Origin: a virus
Taxonomy: Duplodnaviria; Heunggongvirae; Uroviricota; Caudoviricetes
IMG/VR virus record: IMGVR_UViG_2663763377_000009
Strand: one strand, 5' to 3'
DNA: 10,931 nucleotides
Below, piece after piece: positions 4,481 to 10,805 of this stretch. How positions within the stretch are numbered: position 1 is the first letter of the stretch; each line of letters starts with the position of its first letter. The translations under genes were made by a program, and so were the position numbers. The notes under the pieces were generated by a model that saw nothing but the letters and a program-made list of their open reading frames with translations, was not told the DNA's origin and searched no databases.

Positions 4481-4777
4481 TTATACCTCTGAATCAATAT
4501 CAACCTGATGGTGAGCAATGGTTTCAACCATGTACCGGATGTGTTCTGCCATGCGCTCCTGAAACTCAACATCGTCATCAAACGCACGGGTAATGGCTTT
4601 TTTGCTGGCCCCGTGGCGTTGCAAATGATCGATGCATAGCGATTCAAACAGGTGCTGGGGCAGGCCTTTTTCCATGTCGTCTGCCAGTTCTGCCTCTTTC
4701 TCTTCACGGGCGATCTGCTGGTAGTGACGCGCCCAGCTTTGAGCCTCAAGACGATCCTGAATGTAATAAGCGTTCAT
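4481..4777 (-). CDS. gam: Gam, RecBCD inhibitor (98 aa, corresponds to the short GamS form)
   Basis: Translation [44 protein letters not shown]... matches recalled lambda GamS; AGGAG 8 nt upstream; only 75 nt separate it from the upstream gene, so no long GamL form is possible here. Confidence 0.9.
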
Positions 4778-4852
4778 GGCTGAACTCCTGAAAATGGCTG
4801 TGAAAATATCGCCCGCTAAATGCCAGGCTGATTAGGAAAACAGGAAAGGGGA

Positions 4853-5059
4853 TTAGTGATTCAGGCCGTTACCGCGTCCGTCGAGAAAAACTTCCACGAG
4901 CAAATCACGGGTATAAGTGCGCTCGATGCCGCGATGCAGATAAAGCCGTCCGCGTAAATTAGCTGATGCAGTCCAGGTACCATCTTTGTGTTTGACCAGC
5001 ATTCCTGGCATGACCGCACCTCGATTAACGGTCTGCGTTCCGTAATGTTGATGAACCAT
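4853..5059 (-). CDS. Hypothetical 68-aa protein at the position lambda uses for kil (MVHQHYGTQTVNRGAVMPGMLVKHKDGTW...)
   Basis: Start chosen at the internal ATG preceded by AGGAG plus 5 nt; the longer 136-aa frame in the track begins with TTG and has no ribosome-binding site. Function is by synteny only. Confidence 0.5.
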   Translation of the reverse strand: MVHQHYGTQTVNRGAVMPGMLVKHKDGTWTASANLRGRLYLHRGIERTYTRDLLVEVFLDGRGNGLNH

Positions 5060-5336
5060 AAAAACTCCTGCCCGTAAGCTGGGCTGCTGAACATATAGAG
5101 ACTTCTGCGCGTATTCAGGCGGTGGATGGCCGCCGGTTGTCATAACTAAGCCGCCTCGTTGAAGCGACTGAGGTATGAGGTGTTGAGTTGATTTCAGCTG
5201 GTCACACCGACGTTCACACGTCCGTTTCACCCCTCGCACTCCCCGGAGCCTGCTGAAATTCAAGCTGCGGATCTAAGCGGTCATCGCAACGGTGAATCAG
5301 GTGGTTGCCGTATCGTTGTGTTGTTGCGATGAACTC

Positions 5337-5365
5337 ATTTAAAACTATAGTTGTTTTACCGTCAA
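5337..5365 (-). promoter_or_regulatory. Putative pL promoter with embedded OL operator (-35 TTGACG, 17-nt spacer, -10 TTAAAT, read on the minus strand)
   Basis: Minus-strand segment gttgTTGACGgtaaaacaactatagttTTAAATgagttc is nearly colinear with the PR segment gttgTTGACTaaaaacaaccatagtttTAATCTtgattc; both carry GTTGTT/AACAAC dyads. Confidence 0.5.
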
Positions 5366-5500
5366 CAACAAAAGTTGTTTCATTGGTTGTTTTAGATATA
5401 ACTGGTTGTATTTAGGATGGATTTATTTTGTGACTTGCATCGCATAGCGATAACTGAAGCGGGGGGTATGGTGGTTTTTTGAACGGTGTGTGATGAGGGG

Positions 5501-5531
5501 AGGCAAAAGAAAACCCGGCACGACGGCCGGG
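5501..5531 (-). terminator. Rho-independent terminator ending the cI to cassette transcript (lambda t-imm equivalent)
   Basis: 6-bp GC stem CCCGGC/GCCGGG with a 6-nt loop, followed on the minus strand by TTTTCTTTTG, 9 nt after the stop of the 168-aa gene. Confidence 0.6.
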
Positions 5532-5539
5532 GAGGGGGG

Positions 5540-6046
5540 TCATTTTAATCTATCAAGGAGTGACTCTCTTTCCTTCTTCTCTGATTCTCTTCGGTTTAAT
5601 AACGCTTTAAACTCTTGAAGCTCAACCATTATTTTATGAACGAATACACTGGTATAGAGAGAAATAAAGAGTAATCCACCTGAAATTTTTAAGACCCTGA
5701 AGAGTAGGGCTTGATCATTTGTGCTTGCTATTAACCCCAAGATTACAAACAAAGTTGAAAATACATAGAAAGCTAATAATAAAACCAATTTCAGTCTCTT
5801 GGATTTGACTATTGGCACTAATCGCCTAACCTCACTAGGGGTTAAAGACGAGTGGTCATTGGCCTCATTTGCCTTAAAAATGGCTTGTATACAATATGAT
5901 AATGGCAATTGCATGAGTCCAACCACAGCCCACGGAGCAGTTAGGACAACACCCGGTGTAATATAGCCCAATGCTGACTTGAACAAAAAGTAACCAGCAA
6001 AATAGAAGACCAACATACCAATAAGGTGGATGATGTTCGATTTCAT
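5540..6046 (-). CDS. Small integral membrane protein, 168 aa, about four predicted transmembrane helices and a charged C-terminal tail; occupies the rexB position
   Basis: Hydrophobic stretches IIHLIGMLVFYFAGYFLF, GVVLTAPWAVVGLMQLPL, LKLVLLLAFYVFSTLFVILGLIAS, LLFISLYTSVFV; strong AAGGAGG 7 nt upstream of the ATG; AT-rich codon usage unlike flanking genes; no similarity to RexB that I can see. Confidence 0.75.
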   Translation of the reverse strand: MKSNIIHLIGMLVFYFAGYFLFKSALGYITPGVVLTAPWAVVGLMQLPLSYCIQAIFKANEANDHSSLTPSEVRRLVPIVKSKRLKLVLLLAFYVFSTLFVILGLIASTNDQALLFRVLKISGGLLFISLYTSVFVHKIMVELQEFKALLNRRESEKKERESLLDRLK

Positions 6047-6067
6047 TATCGCCCTCCTTTTGGTAGG

Positions 6068-7090
6068 TTATTTTGCAACCAATTCTCCGGCATCAAGTTT
6101 TGAGAACAGCCACTTATGCATTTTTAAGAATAAATCATTTTCATCAATAATGCCATTGTTATATTCAACGCTAATTTTTCCGGATAATTTTATCTCTTTT
6201 CCCGTTATTTCCCCACCGCCTTGAAGTTTGATGCTAATATCATCCTCATCTAGATGTCGTAGTGAGGTAGCAATACTGTCTATAACAGCTTGACCGCTAT
6301 CATTTGTTTTTCTGAAGTATGTAATCTCGAGGCTTACTTGTAAATTGGCCTCATCTAATGAATCTTTAATGTTTATATCATTTGCCCAGTTATCGCCAAA
6401 AAATGCTTTTAGTAGCGCACCTCCTTTCCCTATTGGGCGGTATTTTATTGTCTTCACCGAACCATTTGAAAAGGAGGGTGTTTGGTTCTCTGAATTTTTA
6501 ACTTCTGAAGTAATGGGTAATCCACCAATTTTTATGCTCTTGGCTGGTGCTTTCTCCATTTTTTTCATCGTTTCTTCGGATGGCTTATCTTGAAGCATTA
6601 ACACAGATTCTTTTTCATCTGTGAATGTATTAATTAGCCAATTCAAATGCGCCTCAAGCTCCCTTGCTCGAAGCGATGTGGATTGAACGATCATGACATG
6701 GTTGTTTAGTACACCAAAATATAAAATTGAATCTACAAACTCTCTTTTTTTGTCACTACGTTTATCTCCATCAATAATTATATCATTAGACGTGATGGAG
6801 TTAATGTCATAAAATTTAACATTATCACTAAGCTCTAATAGAGACTGGCTTTTGTCTTTTTCAAATAAAACCAGTTGCCCAAAAAGTATAGTTTTGTATG
6901 TGTCGCTTTTATTTAAGAAACGACACCCCGAATTTTCATCTGAAGGTGTTATTTTTTCTTGTCTACTAAGTACTTTTTCTGCAACGCCGCCCTCACCTAT
7001 AATACTAAGTAGTATGTTTTGTAATGATGATTTGCTGTGTGGGATTACTGCTTTTTTATAATGAACGACTTTTTGTCTGTTATCTTTCAT
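6068..7090 (-). CDS. Unknown soluble protein, 340 aa; occupies the rexA position downstream of the repressor
   Basis: Long uninterrupted ORF, Lys/Asp/Asn/Ile-rich, no catalytic motif recognised; separated by 21 nt from the downstream membrane protein gene, suggesting one operon. Confidence 0.75.
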   Translation of the reverse strand: MKDNRQKVVHYKKAVIPHSKSSLQNILLSIIGEGGVAEKVLSRQEKITPSDENSGCRFLNKSDTYKTILFGQLVLFEKDKSQSLLELSDNVKFYDINSITSNDIIIDGDKRSDKKREFVDSILYFGVLNNHVMIVQSTSLRARELEAHLNWLINTFTDEKESVLMLQDKPSEETMKKMEKAPAKSIKIGGLPITSEVKNSENQTPSFSNGSVKTIKYRPIGKGGALLKAFFGDNWANDINIKDSLDEANLQVSLEITYFRKTNDSGQAVIDSIATSLRHLDEDDISIKLQGGGEITGKEIKLSGKISVEYNNGIIDENDLFLKMHKWLFSKLDAGELVAK

Positions 7091-7147
7091 TGCTATAGTC
7101 CAACTAGTATTGAATAAATAAACACAGTAAAGACATAAAAATTTCTT

Positions 7148-7177
7148 ATAGCTACCGATAACGTAATCGGTAGCTAT
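7148..7177. promoter_or_regulatory. Perfect 12-bp inverted repeat ATAGCTACCGAT (loop aacgta) ATCGGTAGCTAT between the repressor gene and the cassette
   Basis: Read directly: 7148-7159 is the reverse complement of 7166-7177. On the minus-strand RNA the hairpin is followed by AAGAAATTTTTAT, so it may be a partial terminator or attenuator, or else a protein-binding palindrome. Confidence 0.4.
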
Positions 7178-7212
7178 TACAAATCAACCAAAGGTAATTC
7201 TTTACATACTAC

Positions 7213-7902
7213 CTACCCATGCTTCCTGTAGGTCTGCGGCATGCTCCCAATAACTTTCCCGAAGATAAACACCCGGTTCATCTCGTCTTTCTCAATTGGG
7301 TCCCACGGCGAGTAGCTCTTGTTATCAGAGATAACCAGTAGCTTATCCTTCATCATTTGCAGGCGCTTTACATGGGCTGTGTCGTCGTACAGAAACGCAT
7401 AGATACCATCACCGTCGAAAGATTTAACTGTGATATCAACGAACAGCAGATCACCTGGTTCGATCGTTCCTGACATGCTGTCACCACGCACGTTAATGAT
7501 GCGGATATTTTCCGCCTTCCTACCATCGAACATGTGACGAGCATCGTCAAACGAGTACTCAACCGAGCGTAGAACTTCTACAAACTCACGGTTGATGACT
7601 CCCGGCCCAGCACTGACTTCTATATCAAGAACGTCAATCTTAAAGTATTTGGAATGGCTGACAGTTGATAGTATTGGTTGCACTGTACTGTCTGACATAT
7701 TTCCAACGCCAGAAGATAACCATTCTGCGCGCACACCCAAAGCGTTCGCGATCTCCACGATTTTAGTTGTTTGGTTAGCTTTCCCTGTTTCGATTTTCTG
7801 AATAGCAGCTTGGCTAACCCCGACCAAATCCCCAAGCGCCTTTTGTGTAAGGCCTCGCGCTAATCTGGCTTCTTTAAGTCTTTCTGAGAGTGTTGTTTTC
7901 AT
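7213..7902 (-). CDS. cI-like prophage repressor, 229 aa: N-terminal HTH (XRE type) plus C-terminal S24 LexA-like autopeptidase domain
   Basis: HTH region LTQKALGDLVGVSQAAIQKIETGK; S24 signature GDSM ... VKRL (Ser/Lys dyad); divergent from a Cro-like gene across an operator region. Start set at 7902 because the 22-codon extension to 7968 would run through the PR promoter. Confidence 0.85.
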   Translation of the reverse strand: MKTTLSERLKEARLARGLTQKALGDLVGVSQAAIQKIETGKANQTTKIVEIANALGVRAEWLSSGVGNMSDSTVQPILSTVSHSKYFKIDVLDIEVSAGPGVINREFVEVLRSVEYSFDDARHMFDGRKAENIRIINVRGDSMSGTIEPGDLLFVDITVKSFDGDGIYAFLYDDTAHVKRLQMMKDKLLVISDNKSYSPWDPIEKDEMNRVFIFGKVIGSMPQTYRKHG

Positions 7903-7908
7903 AGTCCA

Positions 7909-7937
7909 AATGTACAACCAAGGTTTTATTCCATCAA
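7909..7937 (-). promoter_or_regulatory. Putative PRM (-35 TTGATG, 17-nt spacer, -10 TACATT on the minus strand), predicted start site at or beside the cI ATG (leaderless)
   Basis: Hexamers read from the sequence; the -10 ends 6 nt before the ATG at 7902, and there is no Shine-Dalgarno, mirroring lambda PRM/cI. Confidence 0.4.
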
Positions 7938-7943
7938 ACGAAA

Positions 7944-7979
7944 ATGGTTGTTGACTAAAAACAACCATAGTTTTAATCT
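7944..7979 (+). promoter_or_regulatory. PR promoter (-35 TTGACT 7951-7956, -10 TAATCT 7974-7979) overlapping a 9-bp-arm dyad operator ATGGTTGTT (gactaaa) AACAACCAT
   Basis: Inverted repeat 7944-7952 / 7960-7968 read directly; 17-nt spacer; GGAGG 5 nt before the ATG at 8007. Confidence 0.55.
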
Positions 7980-8006
7980 TGATTCAAATTAACCACGGAG
8001 GTTGTT

Positions 8007-8237
8007 ATGAACCCAGCTATCAAAACAGCGATCAATATCGTTGGTTCACAAAAGAAACTGGGCGCTGCCTGCGAAGTTTCACAGCAGGCCGTCTATAAGT
8101 GGCTTCACAACAAAGCAAAGGTATCCCCTGAACATGTCGGCAGCATTGTTACGGCTACTGGTGGAGTAGTGAAGGCATACCAGATTCGCCCGGATCTTCC
8201 GAAGTTGTTTCCACACACCGAAAAGAACGCAGCTTAA
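8007..8237 (+). CDS. Cro-like HTH regulator of the YdaS family (76 aa)
   Basis: Divergent from the repressor; motif AINIVGSQKKLGAACEVSQQAVYKWL ... ATGG resembles YdaS-type small HTH proteins of E. coli prophages. Confidence 0.8.
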   Translation: MNPAIKTAINIVGSQKKLGAACEVSQQAVYKWLHNKAKVSPEHVGSIVTATGGVVKAYQIRPDLPKLFPHTEKNAA

Positions 8238-8306: not shown

Positions 8307-8846
8307 ATGCAACCACTTACATACCAACAGACTAGCGGATTTAGCCCGACTGCGGTGATAAATCGTTCTCAAACAAAACAGGTGCCAGGCCACGAAAAAA
8401 TCCGTGATGCCGTCCGCGCCTGGTCGGCTGAAGATAATCAGGATGTCGTTGCCACACTCATTGTGAATGAGTATCGGGAGCAGGGCGGCGGCGCCATCGA
8501 TTTCCCTGATGATGTCAGCCGTGCACGCCAGAAGCTGTTCCGCTTCCTCGATAACAAATTCGATTCTGAAAAATACCGAAATAACGTGCGTGAACTGACC
8601 CCGGCAATTCTGGCGGTACTACCGCTGGAATATCGCGGTTACCTGGTTGAGCAGGATAGCTTCATGGCTAGGTTGGCTGAAATGGAAAAGGAACTCAGTG
8701 AGGCAAAACAGGCTGTCATTCTCAACGCACCACGCCACCAGAAACTGAAGGAGATGAGTGAAGGTATTGTGTCGATGTTTCGTGTGGACCCGGATCTGGC
8801 TGGTCCATTGATGGCGATGGTTACCACCATGTTGGGGGCAATATGA
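8307..8846 (+). CDS. YdaT-family protein (179 aa), cII functional analogue candidate
   Basis: Motifs EYREQGGGAIDFP and LTPAILAVLPLEYRGYL resemble recalled YdaT of the Rac and CP-933P prophages; located where lambda has cII; AAGGAG 6 nt upstream. Confidence 0.7.
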   Translation: MQPLTYQQTSGFSPTAVINRSQTKQVPGHEKIRDAVRAWSAEDNQDVVATLIVNEYREQGGGAIDFPDDVSRARQKLFRFLDNKFDSEKYRNNVRELTPAILAVLPLEYRGYLVEQDSFMARLAEMEKELSEAKQAVILNAPRHQKLKEMSEGIVSMFRVDPDLAGPLMAMVTTMLGAI

Positions 8847-10622: not shown

Positions 10623-10805
10623 ATGAAATCTGCTGACCTGTTGAAAGAACTGATAGCTGCTGGTTGCGAGTTGAAACGGCATAAGGCAAGCAGTCACCAG
10701 ATATGGTGGTCGCCAATAACAGGAAAAACTTTTCCTGTTCCTCATCCTAAAAAGGACTTGCCGCTAGGTACTGTCAGATCGATCAAAAAAATGGCGGGGA
10801 TTTAA
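10623..10805 (+). CDS. hicA: HicA-family toxin (mRNA interferase), 60 aa
   Basis: MKSADLLKELIAAGCELKRHKASSHQIWWSPITGKTFPVPHPKKDLPLGTVRSIKKMAGI fits the HicA/YcfA pattern (ELxRxKGSH ... VPxHxxKDLxxGTxxSIxKxAG). Confidence 0.85.
   Translation: MKSADLLKELIAAGCELKRHKASSHQIWWSPITGKTFPVPHPKKDLPLGTVRSIKKMAGI

Follow-up and report, generated by a model that had tools for sequence, protein, structure and literature searches.

To our knowledge, both the trigger and the activation mechanism of the lambda RexA/RexB exclusion system (Pfam PF15969/PF15968; PDB 8TWQ) are still unknown some 70 years after its discovery. As of 2026, five Rex-like systems have been described, and in three of them the B protein is the effector (PMC12894663). 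In the P. putida prophage P1, RexABpp (PP_5643/PP_5644; PADLOC PDC-M53A/B) acts in defense and damages membranes (Rosendahl et al. 2026, PMC12894663). A further set comes from actinophages: Sbash gp30/gp31, CarolAnn gp44/gp43, Butters gp30/gp31 and Toast gp42, which we compared by their published descriptions alone. Their RexA-like proteins are cytoplasmic, 337-372 aa long and accompanied by a membrane partner; they dimerise and bind DNA non-specifically, and the pairs often adjoin an immunity repressor and exclude heterologous phages (PMC11077077; PMC12894663). The fold of RexA is also related to that of RdgC (PF04381; PDB 2OWL), IML3, CHL4 and CENP-N, proteins that neither have a membrane partner nor belong to the accessory cargo of prophages.

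Here, we analyzed a two-gene cassette in a 10,931-nt stretch of Caudoviricetes DNA (IMG/VR record IMGVR_UViG_2663763377_000009; hereafter the window), which is 99.6% identical to the deposited phage record Perceval. We consider it reasonably probable, by comparison with the systems above, that the cassette encodes a two-component phage-exclusion module of the Rex type (abortive infection or growth arrest) and sits as a moron within a lambdoid prophage's immunity region. The features of the region are as follows.

5333-5410, minus strand: oL/pL-like operator-promoter region bounding the immunity region on the left, with inverted-repeat elements
5505-5531, minus strand: intrinsic terminator, CCCGGCcgtcgtGCCGGG plus UUUUCUUUU, with a 6-bp G+C stem and a 6-nt loop, from the terminator scan
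5540-6046, minus strand: ORF168 (168 aa), putative effector, four-pass inner-membrane protein, RexB-like by architecture alone; PHROG 16807; Perceval PERCE_42
6047-6067, minus strand: ORF340-ORF168 spacer, 21 nt from TAA to ATG, with the Shine-Dalgarno motif AAGGAGG at 6059-6053, read from the sequence
6068-7090, minus strand: ORF340 (340 aa), putative RexA-like sensor or activator, cytoplasmic; PHROG 3482; Perceval PERCE_43
7091-7212, minus strand: cI-ORF340 spacer, 122 nt, containing a 12-bp perfect palindrome at 7141-7184
7213-7968, minus strand: cI-type repressor (HTH_3 and Peptidase_S24, by Pfam), the upstream gene of the presumed operon

The original prediction had placed two genes of 340 and 168 aa, 21 nt apart, in the slot that rexA and rexB occupy in lambda, and its description of the locus was borne out. 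Both ORFs were confirmed, and so was a strong ribosome-binding site before ORF168, whose AAGGAGG lies 6 nt upstream of the ATG. As predicted, the cassette runs in the orientation of the cI-type repressor gene; it fills the interval between the cI stop codon and the terminator, whose hairpin and U-run (5531-5505) directly follow the ORF168 stop and close the cassette. The predicted AT-richness is also present, with a GC content of 0.32-0.39 over 5400-7200 vs 0.45-0.54 in the flanks. The slot itself was recognized from inverted operator/promoter elements that bracket the terminator, ORF168, ORF340 and cI. A 19-nt element at 5339-5357 has a 95% identical inverted copy at 7958-7976, and a second pair (23 nt) lies at 5361-5383 and 7933-7955, with the right-hand copies adjoining cro; GGTTGTW half-sites are clustered at the oL/pL-like region and at 7913-8006. 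From these elements, 5333-5410 would contain the pL-like promoter. Lambda has the same layout (oL...rexB-rexA-cI...oR), with gaps of 112 and 15 nt where the window has 122 and 21 nt. The true start of cI is likely the ATG at 7905, which gives the 230-aa protein annotated in Perceval.

The terminator (-12.1 kcal/mol) would end the presumed cI-cassette transcription unit, as the equivalent of lambda tIMM. An equivalent hairpin, with a conserved stem and a variable loop, stands right after the partner gene in the Klebsiella copies of the cassette, and in the cassette-less phage Turner the same terminator lies ~120 nt downstream of the same cI. Synteny supports expression of the cassette in the lysogen as part of the cI transcript, ending before oL. 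The promoter scan detected no promoter of the cassette's own in the cI-ORF340 spacer. A good-looking candidate promoter inside ORF340 (6804-6777) was rejected because it does not stand above chance in AT-rich DNA. The cI-ORF340 spacer could not be aligned with phage Turner and is part of the inserted cassette. Its RNA folds strongly (-29.5 kcal/mol, z -3.0) and its palindrome, which was also recovered as an inverted repeat in the repeat scan of the window, is a difference from lambda. The palindrome may be an attenuator of cI read-through or a processing site, and the strong hairpin might limit co-transcription. As a conserved regulatory element the palindrome was rejected, because it is missing from the Klebsiella copies.

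Pfam, PADLOC and NCBIfam gave zero matches for ORF340 and ORF168, and a sequence-profile search of the PDB gave 0 matches. For the window proteins and 51 close members of their family, none of the Rex models (Pfam PF15969/PF15968, PADLOC PDLC02339/PDLC02340) was matched at E <= 1; the lambda proteins, used as positive controls, matched the RexA/RexB HMMs at 1e-97, 8.5e-92, 9e-110 and 8.6e-61. A link through relatives was thus not recovered either (0 of the 51 close members match Pfam RexA). PADLOC models found nothing among 100 remote family members, and PDC-M53A/B in particular were matched neither by the window proteins nor by these 100 relatives, while the control proteins PP_5643/44 matched them at 8.4e-157 and 2.8e-72. 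BLASTP against lambda RexA/RexB was negative, as were BLASTP, hhalign and HMMER against PP_5643/PP_5644, and hhalign (with profiles of 51-255 sequences) and HMMER against RexA/RexB. These negatives are weak and uninformative on homology because the same hhalign set-up also misses the relationship between RexA and PP_5643, for which its authors report an HHpred probability of 98% (PMC12894663). Deepening the RexA/RexB profiles with IMG/VR and phage records reached only ~44% identity. Both proteins do belong to unannotated phage families: ORF340 matches PHROG 3482 (E 4.9e-135, residues 1-338) and ORF168 matches PHROG 16807 (E 1.1e-72, residues 1-168). The literature we searched makes no mention of this sequence family.

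The predicted structure of ORF340 points to RexA. The model is of moderate quality (pLDDT 71.5, and <50 in residues 190-260, the putative dimerisation domain), but it appears to adopt the RexA fold, in which a dimerisation domain accompanies a split globular domain and which is related to RdgC, IML3 and CHL4. The RexA score was far above the RdgC score, and the next matches in the fold search were CHL4, RdgC (2owl), CENP-N, IML3 and the sugar epimerase 3oh8, all of which are structural relatives reported for RexA (PMC11077077). DSSP assigned approximately seven strands to residues 1-160 and 300-311 together with a C-terminal helix, and four strands and four helices to the central part, a count consistent with the published RexA architecture (PMC11077077). 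A Foldseek search of BFVD returned only uncharacterised phage proteins and, weakly, RdgC; lambda RexA was absent from the top 50. The suggested homology of ORF340 to RexA is purely structural. The two proteins also differ in charge: ORF340, with a pI of 6.4, is mildly acidic, and lambda RexA (8.6) and RexApp (9.2) are basic. DNA binding by ORF340 is therefore not obvious; its pI does not favor binding, which may nevertheless occur.

The AlphaFold2 model of ORF168 (pLDDT 84.4) contains four long helices (2-27, 39-63, 70-107 and 112-167), in line with the four-helix membrane protein originally described. Loop 2 contains 7 lysine and arginine residues, the C-tail 9, and loops 1 and 3 none, from which the positive-inside rule gives an N-in/C-in topology. 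ORF168 is thus predicted to be a four-TM inner-membrane protein with both termini in the cytoplasm. On the cytoplasmic side it carries a conserved motif L-S-x-S-E-x-R-R-L, with an invariant E72, and at the C-terminus a motif F-K-x-x-L-x-x-R. The spacing of its hydrophobic segments resembles that of RexB, but it has no Pfam or PADLOC RexB match, its hhalign probability to RexB is <1%, and its model gave no significant match, RexB-like or otherwise, in the BFVD fold search. Unlike RexB, it possesses a long charged C-terminal helix and the conserved S-E-x-R-R loop. The accepted RexBpp is likewise without detectable homology to RexB (PMC12894663), so homology to RexB is not needed in the current usage of the term Rex system.

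Among the known systems, the lambda proteins are smaller (RexA 279 vs 340 aa, RexB 144 vs 168 aa) and have no detectable sequence similarity to either window protein; RexABpp likewise belongs to a distinct sequence family. The actinophage A proteins are close in length to the ORF340 family (315-380 aa), but these pairs belong to phages of Actinobacteria, vary in gene order and orientation, and in Butters have reversed logic. The arrangement of ORF340 and ORF168 is that of a Rex-type pair: an A gene of ~280-370 aa followed by an adjacent, co-oriented B gene of ~140-190 aa. Rex-like systems have been accepted on the criteria applied here, a precedent for the Rex-type reading. Most likely, ORF340/ORF168 is a very distant cousin of lambda RexA/RexB, and it would form a sequence-distinct, uncharacterised lineage within the known Rex-type kind. 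The original prediction had found no resemblance to RexA/RexB and hence proposed an undescribed kind of system; this was not supported. Homology, by which novelty was to be judged, gave a divided answer: the structural link between ORF340 and RexA reduces the novelty, while the lack of a sequence link and of demonstrated homology between ORF168 and RexB preserves part of it.

The family is large and the two genes stay together. At 50% identity it falls into at least 788 clusters, whereas canonical RexA, as sampled here, is narrow (19 phage records, down to ~44% identity). The ORF340 homologue and its partner occur as a pair in 30 of 30 genome loci and 72 of 72 viral contigs, as well as in the remote members sampled, and the ORF168 homologue is always downstream. 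Across related loci the median intergenic gap is 1 nt; the two genes overlap or lie no more than 4 nt apart in 27 of 37 loci, which is consistent with translational coupling. Hosts of the pair are prophages, satellite-like islands and defense-island-like contexts of Gammaproteobacteria. Immediately upstream, about 10 of 30 species loci and 33 of 72 viral contigs have a repressor-like gene of the S24/HTH type in the same orientation, with varied immunity types, and over half of the loci do not adjoin a repressor. Elsewhere, the pair lies between Q and holin together with hicAB, closes a satellite-like island, or adjoins a Thoeris-type ThsB-TIR gene; further neighbors include a DNA methylase and a tail fibre gene. 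The Q-holin position suggested a lysis (holin-like) role, which we rejected because the transcription of the pair there opposes that of Q and the lysis genes, and because it has no lysis neighbors elsewhere.

The comparison of related phages supports the expectation of a variable hotspot. Turner, whose cI is identical at 250 of 251 positions (99%) and which differs from the window by an indel, has nothing in the slot; PhiR30_1 has the PADLOC candidate PDC-M63 there, lambda has rexAB, and the window has ORF340/ORF168. The low GC content, the Turner indel and the diversity of contexts likewise uphold the view of the pair as a horizontally acquired moron, an autonomous two-gene cargo.

If the cassette is a Rex-type module, it would share a transcript with cI, starting at the maintenance promoter and stopping at the common terminator, so that both proteins would be present in the lysogen. 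ORF340 would be a dimeric cytoplasmic sensor with the RexA/RdgC split-globular and dimerisation fold, responding to a product of the infecting phage or to a DNA-protein intermediate. Once activated, it would engage the cytoplasmic face of ORF168, namely the S-E-x-R-R loop that follows TM2 and the extended amphipathic helix at the C-terminus. ORF168 might then oligomerise into a channel or pore in the inner membrane, and the resulting depolarisation or permeabilisation would stop growth, abort the infection and protect the lysogen population. This scheme is modeled on lambda RexAB and P. putida RexABpp; that analogy is our basis for inferring PRM-driven expression, sensing, contact between A and B, channel formation and any anti-phage phenotype. 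An anti-phage role expressed in the lysogen is the best reading of the pair.

Other explanations also need to be considered. Butters gp30/gp31 demonstrates that reversed logic exists among Rex-like pairs (PMC12894663), and Rex-like parts could work differently here too, either with the RexA-fold protein as effector and the membrane protein sequestering or anchoring it, or with a RexA-fold sensor that has acquired a non-homologous membrane effector. This would fit with the lack of detectable homology, in sequence or fold, between ORF168 and RexB or RexBpp, with its family-specific cytoplasmic motifs, and with its 35-residue C-terminal helix, for which there is no room in the 144-aa RexB. Nothing specific speaks against reversed or altered logic, but the A-then-B order, the coupling and the four-TM topology fit lambda logic equally well, and B is the effector in the majority of the systems described (three of five; PMC12894663). 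We regard it as unlikely. A cassette serving mainly the prophage's own lysis-lysogeny decision, and not defense, seems a still weaker candidate. Lambda RexA does bias the bistable switch to lytic growth independently of RexB (PMC11077077), and cI is the cassette's immediate neighbor both in this prophage and in many relatives. However, more than half of the loci lie away from a repressor, in the contexts listed above, the membrane partner is kept in every locus, and the homoimmune phage Turner manages without the cassette.

The remaining explanations concern the fold of ORF340. Its RexA match could be spurious, produced by a mediocre model or a widespread alpha/beta scaffold, in which case the pair would be an unrelated new membrane-associated system (defense, superinfection exclusion at DNA entry, or other); we give this little credence. 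Alternatively, ORF340 could modulate recombination or replication in the manner of RdgC, together with the neighboring Red/Gam genes, the membrane protein being incidental. This is very improbable: neither ORF340 nor any of the 51 family members matches Pfam RdgC (PF04381), and RexA scores far better. Moreover, the membrane partner is obligate, the cassette is found without recombination genes nearby, and in the window the terminator and pL lie between the cassette and the Red operon.

If the pair proved to be non-functional or not Rex-like, it would be one more conserved hypothetical moron. As a working Rex-type system, it would mean that a large, widespread lineage has been overlooked by Pfam and PADLOC (2023) and that the defense content of prophages is under-counted. 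The interval from cI to the terminator in E. coli lambdoid phages would then be an exchange point that may hold RexAB, PDC-M63, ORF340/ORF168 or nothing. More tentatively, and with greater doubt than we attach to the Rex-type reading itself, Rex-type exclusion as a whole may be a large, hyperdivergent superfamily that pairs a RexA-fold sensor with a four-pass effector and is missed by these databases, and ORF168-type partners could represent a non-homologous class of effectors that have their own gating and phage trigger. With the window, E. coli would in that case have a second Rex system that evolved independently. Because the window is nearly identical to Perceval and the cassette-less homoimmune Turner exists, this system could be used to study RexA sensing, and comparing Perceval with Turner could separate the conserved features of Rex sensing and gating from those that are lineage specific.

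The window spans the early part of a lambdoid prophage. Its minus strand carries int, xis, exo, bet, gam and a kil-like gene, followed by the two-gene cassette and a cI-type repressor. On the plus strand, beyond the repressor, lie YdaS/YdaT-type genes in the cro and cII positions, O and a P-like gene. The elements of the immunity region are as follows:

6068-7090, minus strand: ORF340, the large gene of the cassette (340 aa)
5540-6046, minus strand: ORF168, the membrane-protein gene (168 aa)
5339-5383 and 7933-7976: inverted copies of putative operator/promoter elements, enclosing the terminator, ORF168, ORF340 and cI

Because the inverted elements enclose these four in this order, the cassette holds the position of rexB-rexA in lambda, and even the spacings are nearly equal (112 + 15 nt in the lambda immunity region vs 122 + 21 nt in the window). 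The two genes are 21 nt apart, with AAGGAGG 6 nt upstream of the ORF168 ATG, and a G+C hairpin followed by UUUUCUUUU forms a terminator directly 3' of ORF168. The GC content of the cassette is 0.32-0.39, against 0.45-0.54 on both flanks. The original prediction had thus described the cassette accurately, from its ORFs, gap, ribosome-binding site and terminator to its low GC and rexAB-like slot. Around the cassette (5400-7250), the DNA shares 99.6% identity with Escherichia phage Perceval (Bievrevirus), in which the two genes carry no annotation beyond "hypothetical protein" and "transmembrane protein".

Some neighboring genes deserve comment. The longest cI ORF (251 aa, start 7968) begins within the oR palindrome; the likelier start is the ATG at 7905, which gives the 230-aa protein of the Perceval annotation. 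The gene in the cro position (8007-8237, plus strand) belongs to the YdaS family (E 4e-17), as in the Rac prophage, and not to that of lambda Cro. The gene in the cII position (8307-8846, plus strand), called "CII" in Perceval, is of the YdaT family (E 1.5e-29) and not of the lambda CII family. At the right end of the window, past the replication genes, is a 60-aa HicA toxin gene (10623-10805, plus strand; Pfam HicA_toxin, E 1.1e-15), whose cognate HicB probably lies beyond the window.

The slot between the cI stop and the terminator is a hotspot, as had been suspected. Escherichia phage Turner has an almost identical cI (250/251) and the same pL/terminator segment, and lacks the cassette. Its similarity to the window stops just past the terminator hairpin and restarts at the cI stop codon, with ~120 nt of unrelated DNA in between (4634-4756 of the Turner locus). 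Given these break points, the cassette and its 122-nt upstream spacer (~5532-7212) are an indel polymorphism inside the cI transcription unit, and Turner provides a natural cassette-less control with isogenic immunity. In Escherichia phage PhiR30_1, which has the same backbone, the slot is filled by a cassette of two other genes (141 aa + 310 aa; 4623-5977 of its locus) that matches the PADLOC candidate defense system PDC-M63A/B (E 8e-36 and 4e-42), and in lambda the same slot is occupied by rexAB.

The cI-ORF340 spacer (7091-7212, minus strand) contains a 12-bp perfect palindrome (TAGCTACCGAT...ATCGGTAGCTA, 7141-7184), whose stem has an A/U extension and is followed by the U-rich stretch UUUUAUGUCUUU. 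For the spacer RNA, the folding energy is -29.5 kcal/mol (z -3.0). The hairpin may attenuate read-through or serve as a processing site. It belongs to the inserted cassette of the window, and Klebsiella copies are without it. Inside ORF340, a strong sigma-70-like site (6777-6804, minus strand; TTAACT-16 nt-TATAAT with an extended-10 TG) is reminiscent of lambda PLIT, from which only rexB is transcribed. With 11 promoter-like sites found and 8.6 expected from shuffling, such sites are not enriched in this AT-rich region.

The full cassette occurs in 42 of 5,426 complete E. coli genomes. Full-length relatives of ORF340 (~130 at the 90% cluster level) are spread across Gammaproteobacteria, and an exhaustive profile search recovered 788 cluster representatives (50% identity) at E <= 1e-3, 276 of them at E <= 1e-30. 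Homologues (46-51% identical) are also present on short contigs assigned to MAGs of "Actinomycetes bacterium" and "Ureibacillus sp."; these contigs are probably gammaproteobacterial or phage DNA binned in error, not true Gram-positive occurrences. Pairing is strict. A gene for a hydrophobic protein (161-193 aa) follows the large gene in all 30 genome loci where the latter is complete, and likewise in 72/72 viral contigs and in the remote members sampled. This partner is homologous to ORF168 and mostly overlaps the large gene or lies <=4 nt away.

The pair sits directly behind S24/HTH repressors of several immunity types (~10 of 30 species loci and 33 of 72 viral contigs), including those of Klebsiella, Pseudomonas and Methylobacter prophages. 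Elsewhere it is found between Q and holin beside hicAB, behind a primase as the last genes of a satellite-like island, or adjoining a DNA methylase or tail-fiber gene. On one metagenomic contig, a ThsB-type TIR-domain gene is directly upstream of a remote family member, P0300, with a 186-aa partner (L098:644-1192), a neighborhood that is defense-island-like. In this movement between contexts, the pair behaves as autonomous accessory cargo. The Methylobacter prophage also has a genuine RdgC gene (PF04381; L009:10263-11174) ~3 kb downstream of the pair, within the same early region, and one phage thus combines two proteins of the RexA/RdgC fold class. The hicAB genes adjoin the pair in a Klebsiella aerogenes prophage (L002:4047-4678) and lie behind rexBpp in P. 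putida prophage P1 (L062:2302-2643); the window's phage has a hicA as well, perhaps by chance, perhaps as part of a recurring association. IS1 shortens the partner gene to 108 aa in a Shigella flexneri prophage (L096:4597-5614), and an IS3-family element splits the cassette region in E. coli T309.Ta3; such disruption may reflect a carriage cost.

Neither protein matched Pfam, NCBIfam or PADLOC, although both Pfam and PADLOC include RexA/RexB models that detect the lambda proteins. The PHROGs containing them are unannotated, and a PDB sequence-profile search gave no matches. We modeled ORF340 with template-free AlphaFold2 from a 51-sequence alignment (pLDDT 71.5, pTM 0.68; confident at residues 1-180 and 290-340, weak at 190-260). 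Fold matches to the model include CHL4 (7.0), RdgC (2owl, 6.7), CENP-N, IML3 and, lower down, a Corynebacterium sugar epimerase (3oh8), the very proteins reported as the structural relatives of RexA itself (PMC11077077). In the model, seven N-terminal strands form a sheet that a strand and a helix from the C terminus complete, and the central unit comprises four strands and four helices. This predicted order fits the architecture of RexA, in which the globular domain is split by an inserted dimerization domain (PMC11077077), and modeling a dimerization domain as a monomer could explain the weak central part. A Foldseek search of ORF340 against viral models (BFVD) returned only uncharacterized phage proteins and, weakly, RdgC; lambda RexA was not among the top 50 matches. 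Two BFVD proteins of the uncultured phage Myoviridae sp. ctgr818 match in fold, one significantly to ORF340 (A0A8S5PCY0, 292 aa, E 1.3e-5) and one weakly to ORF168 (A0A8S5PEF7, 156 aa, E 2.2), and could form a further, highly diverged Rex-like pair. RexA-like DNA binding by ORF340 is uncertain because the protein is acidic (pI 6.4 vs 8.6 for RexA and 9.2 for RexApp).

The ORF168 model consists of four long helices (pLDDT 84.4). Lysine and arginine number 0 and 0 in loops 1 and 3, 7 in loop 2 and 9 in the tail, and thus an N-in/C-in topology is predicted. Helix 3 begins with a conserved, predicted cytoplasmic segment (L-S-x-S-E-x-R-R-L, E72 invariant), and helix 4 runs on into a 35-residue charged helix, also predicted cytoplasmic. 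In a crude hydropathy scan, lambda RexB showed four hydrophobic segments with similar spacing; HMM, hhalign and Foldseek comparisons detected no homology between the two.

A 2026 paper described PP_5643/PP_5644 of P. putida prophage P1 as a RexAB-type system, RexABpp, in which both genes are required for defense, the A protein binds DNA non-specifically, and its overexpression causes B-dependent growth arrest and membrane permeabilization (PMC12894663). We located these sequences via the primers of that paper. They match PADLOC PDC-M53A/B and have no detectable similarity to ORF340/ORF168; no PADLOC model matched the window proteins or 100 remote relatives. Our offline hhalign comparisons, with shallow RexA profiles and no secondary-structure prediction, did not reproduce the published RexA-PP_5643 link, so profile-profile negatives carry little weight. 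At the sequence level, lambda RexAB, RexABpp and the ORF340/ORF168 family are three mutually unrecognizable families. They have the two-gene architecture in common, and also the RexA fold, according to published work for the first two and to the predicted model for ours.

Given the anatomy, conservation, mobility and predicted folds of the cassette, the best-supported reading, which we consider fairly probable, is that the lysogen expresses the pair, presumably from PRM, as a two-component exclusion module of the Rex type. ORF340 would be a cytoplasmic sensor with a RexA fold, probably dimeric, that contacts and activates ORF168, a four-pass membrane effector, via its conserved cytoplasmic loop and tail. 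Once activated, ORF168 would form a channel, membrane potential or integrity would collapse, and the infection would be aborted. Speaking against this, or leaving room for doubt, are the missing tie of ORF168 to RexB, the acidity of ORF340, the spacer hairpin and the absence of lambda RexA from the top BFVD matches. We consider it unlikely that the logic is reversed, as in Butters, or that a non-homologous effector has been swapped in. We give little credence to the possibility that the fold match is spurious and the system truly new. The spread of the pair over contexts argues against a tie to cI/cro or to the Red genes, making modulation of the lysis-lysogeny switch an unlikely role and RdgC-like action in recombination a very improbable one.

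The original prediction had proposed a candidate undescribed exclusion system with no detectable resemblance to RexA/RexB. This is upheld in part: the pair is a lysogen-slot moron, probably for defense; the claimed lack of resemblance yields to the RexA-like predicted fold of ORF340. On the modeled fold, the pair is best filed as a new, sequence-distinct lineage of Rex-type systems with a putative function. This lineage stands out for its large size and its absence from Pfam and PADLOC (2023), for a matching deposited E. coli phage record (Perceval), and for having in Turner a natural cassette-less homoimmune counterpart.
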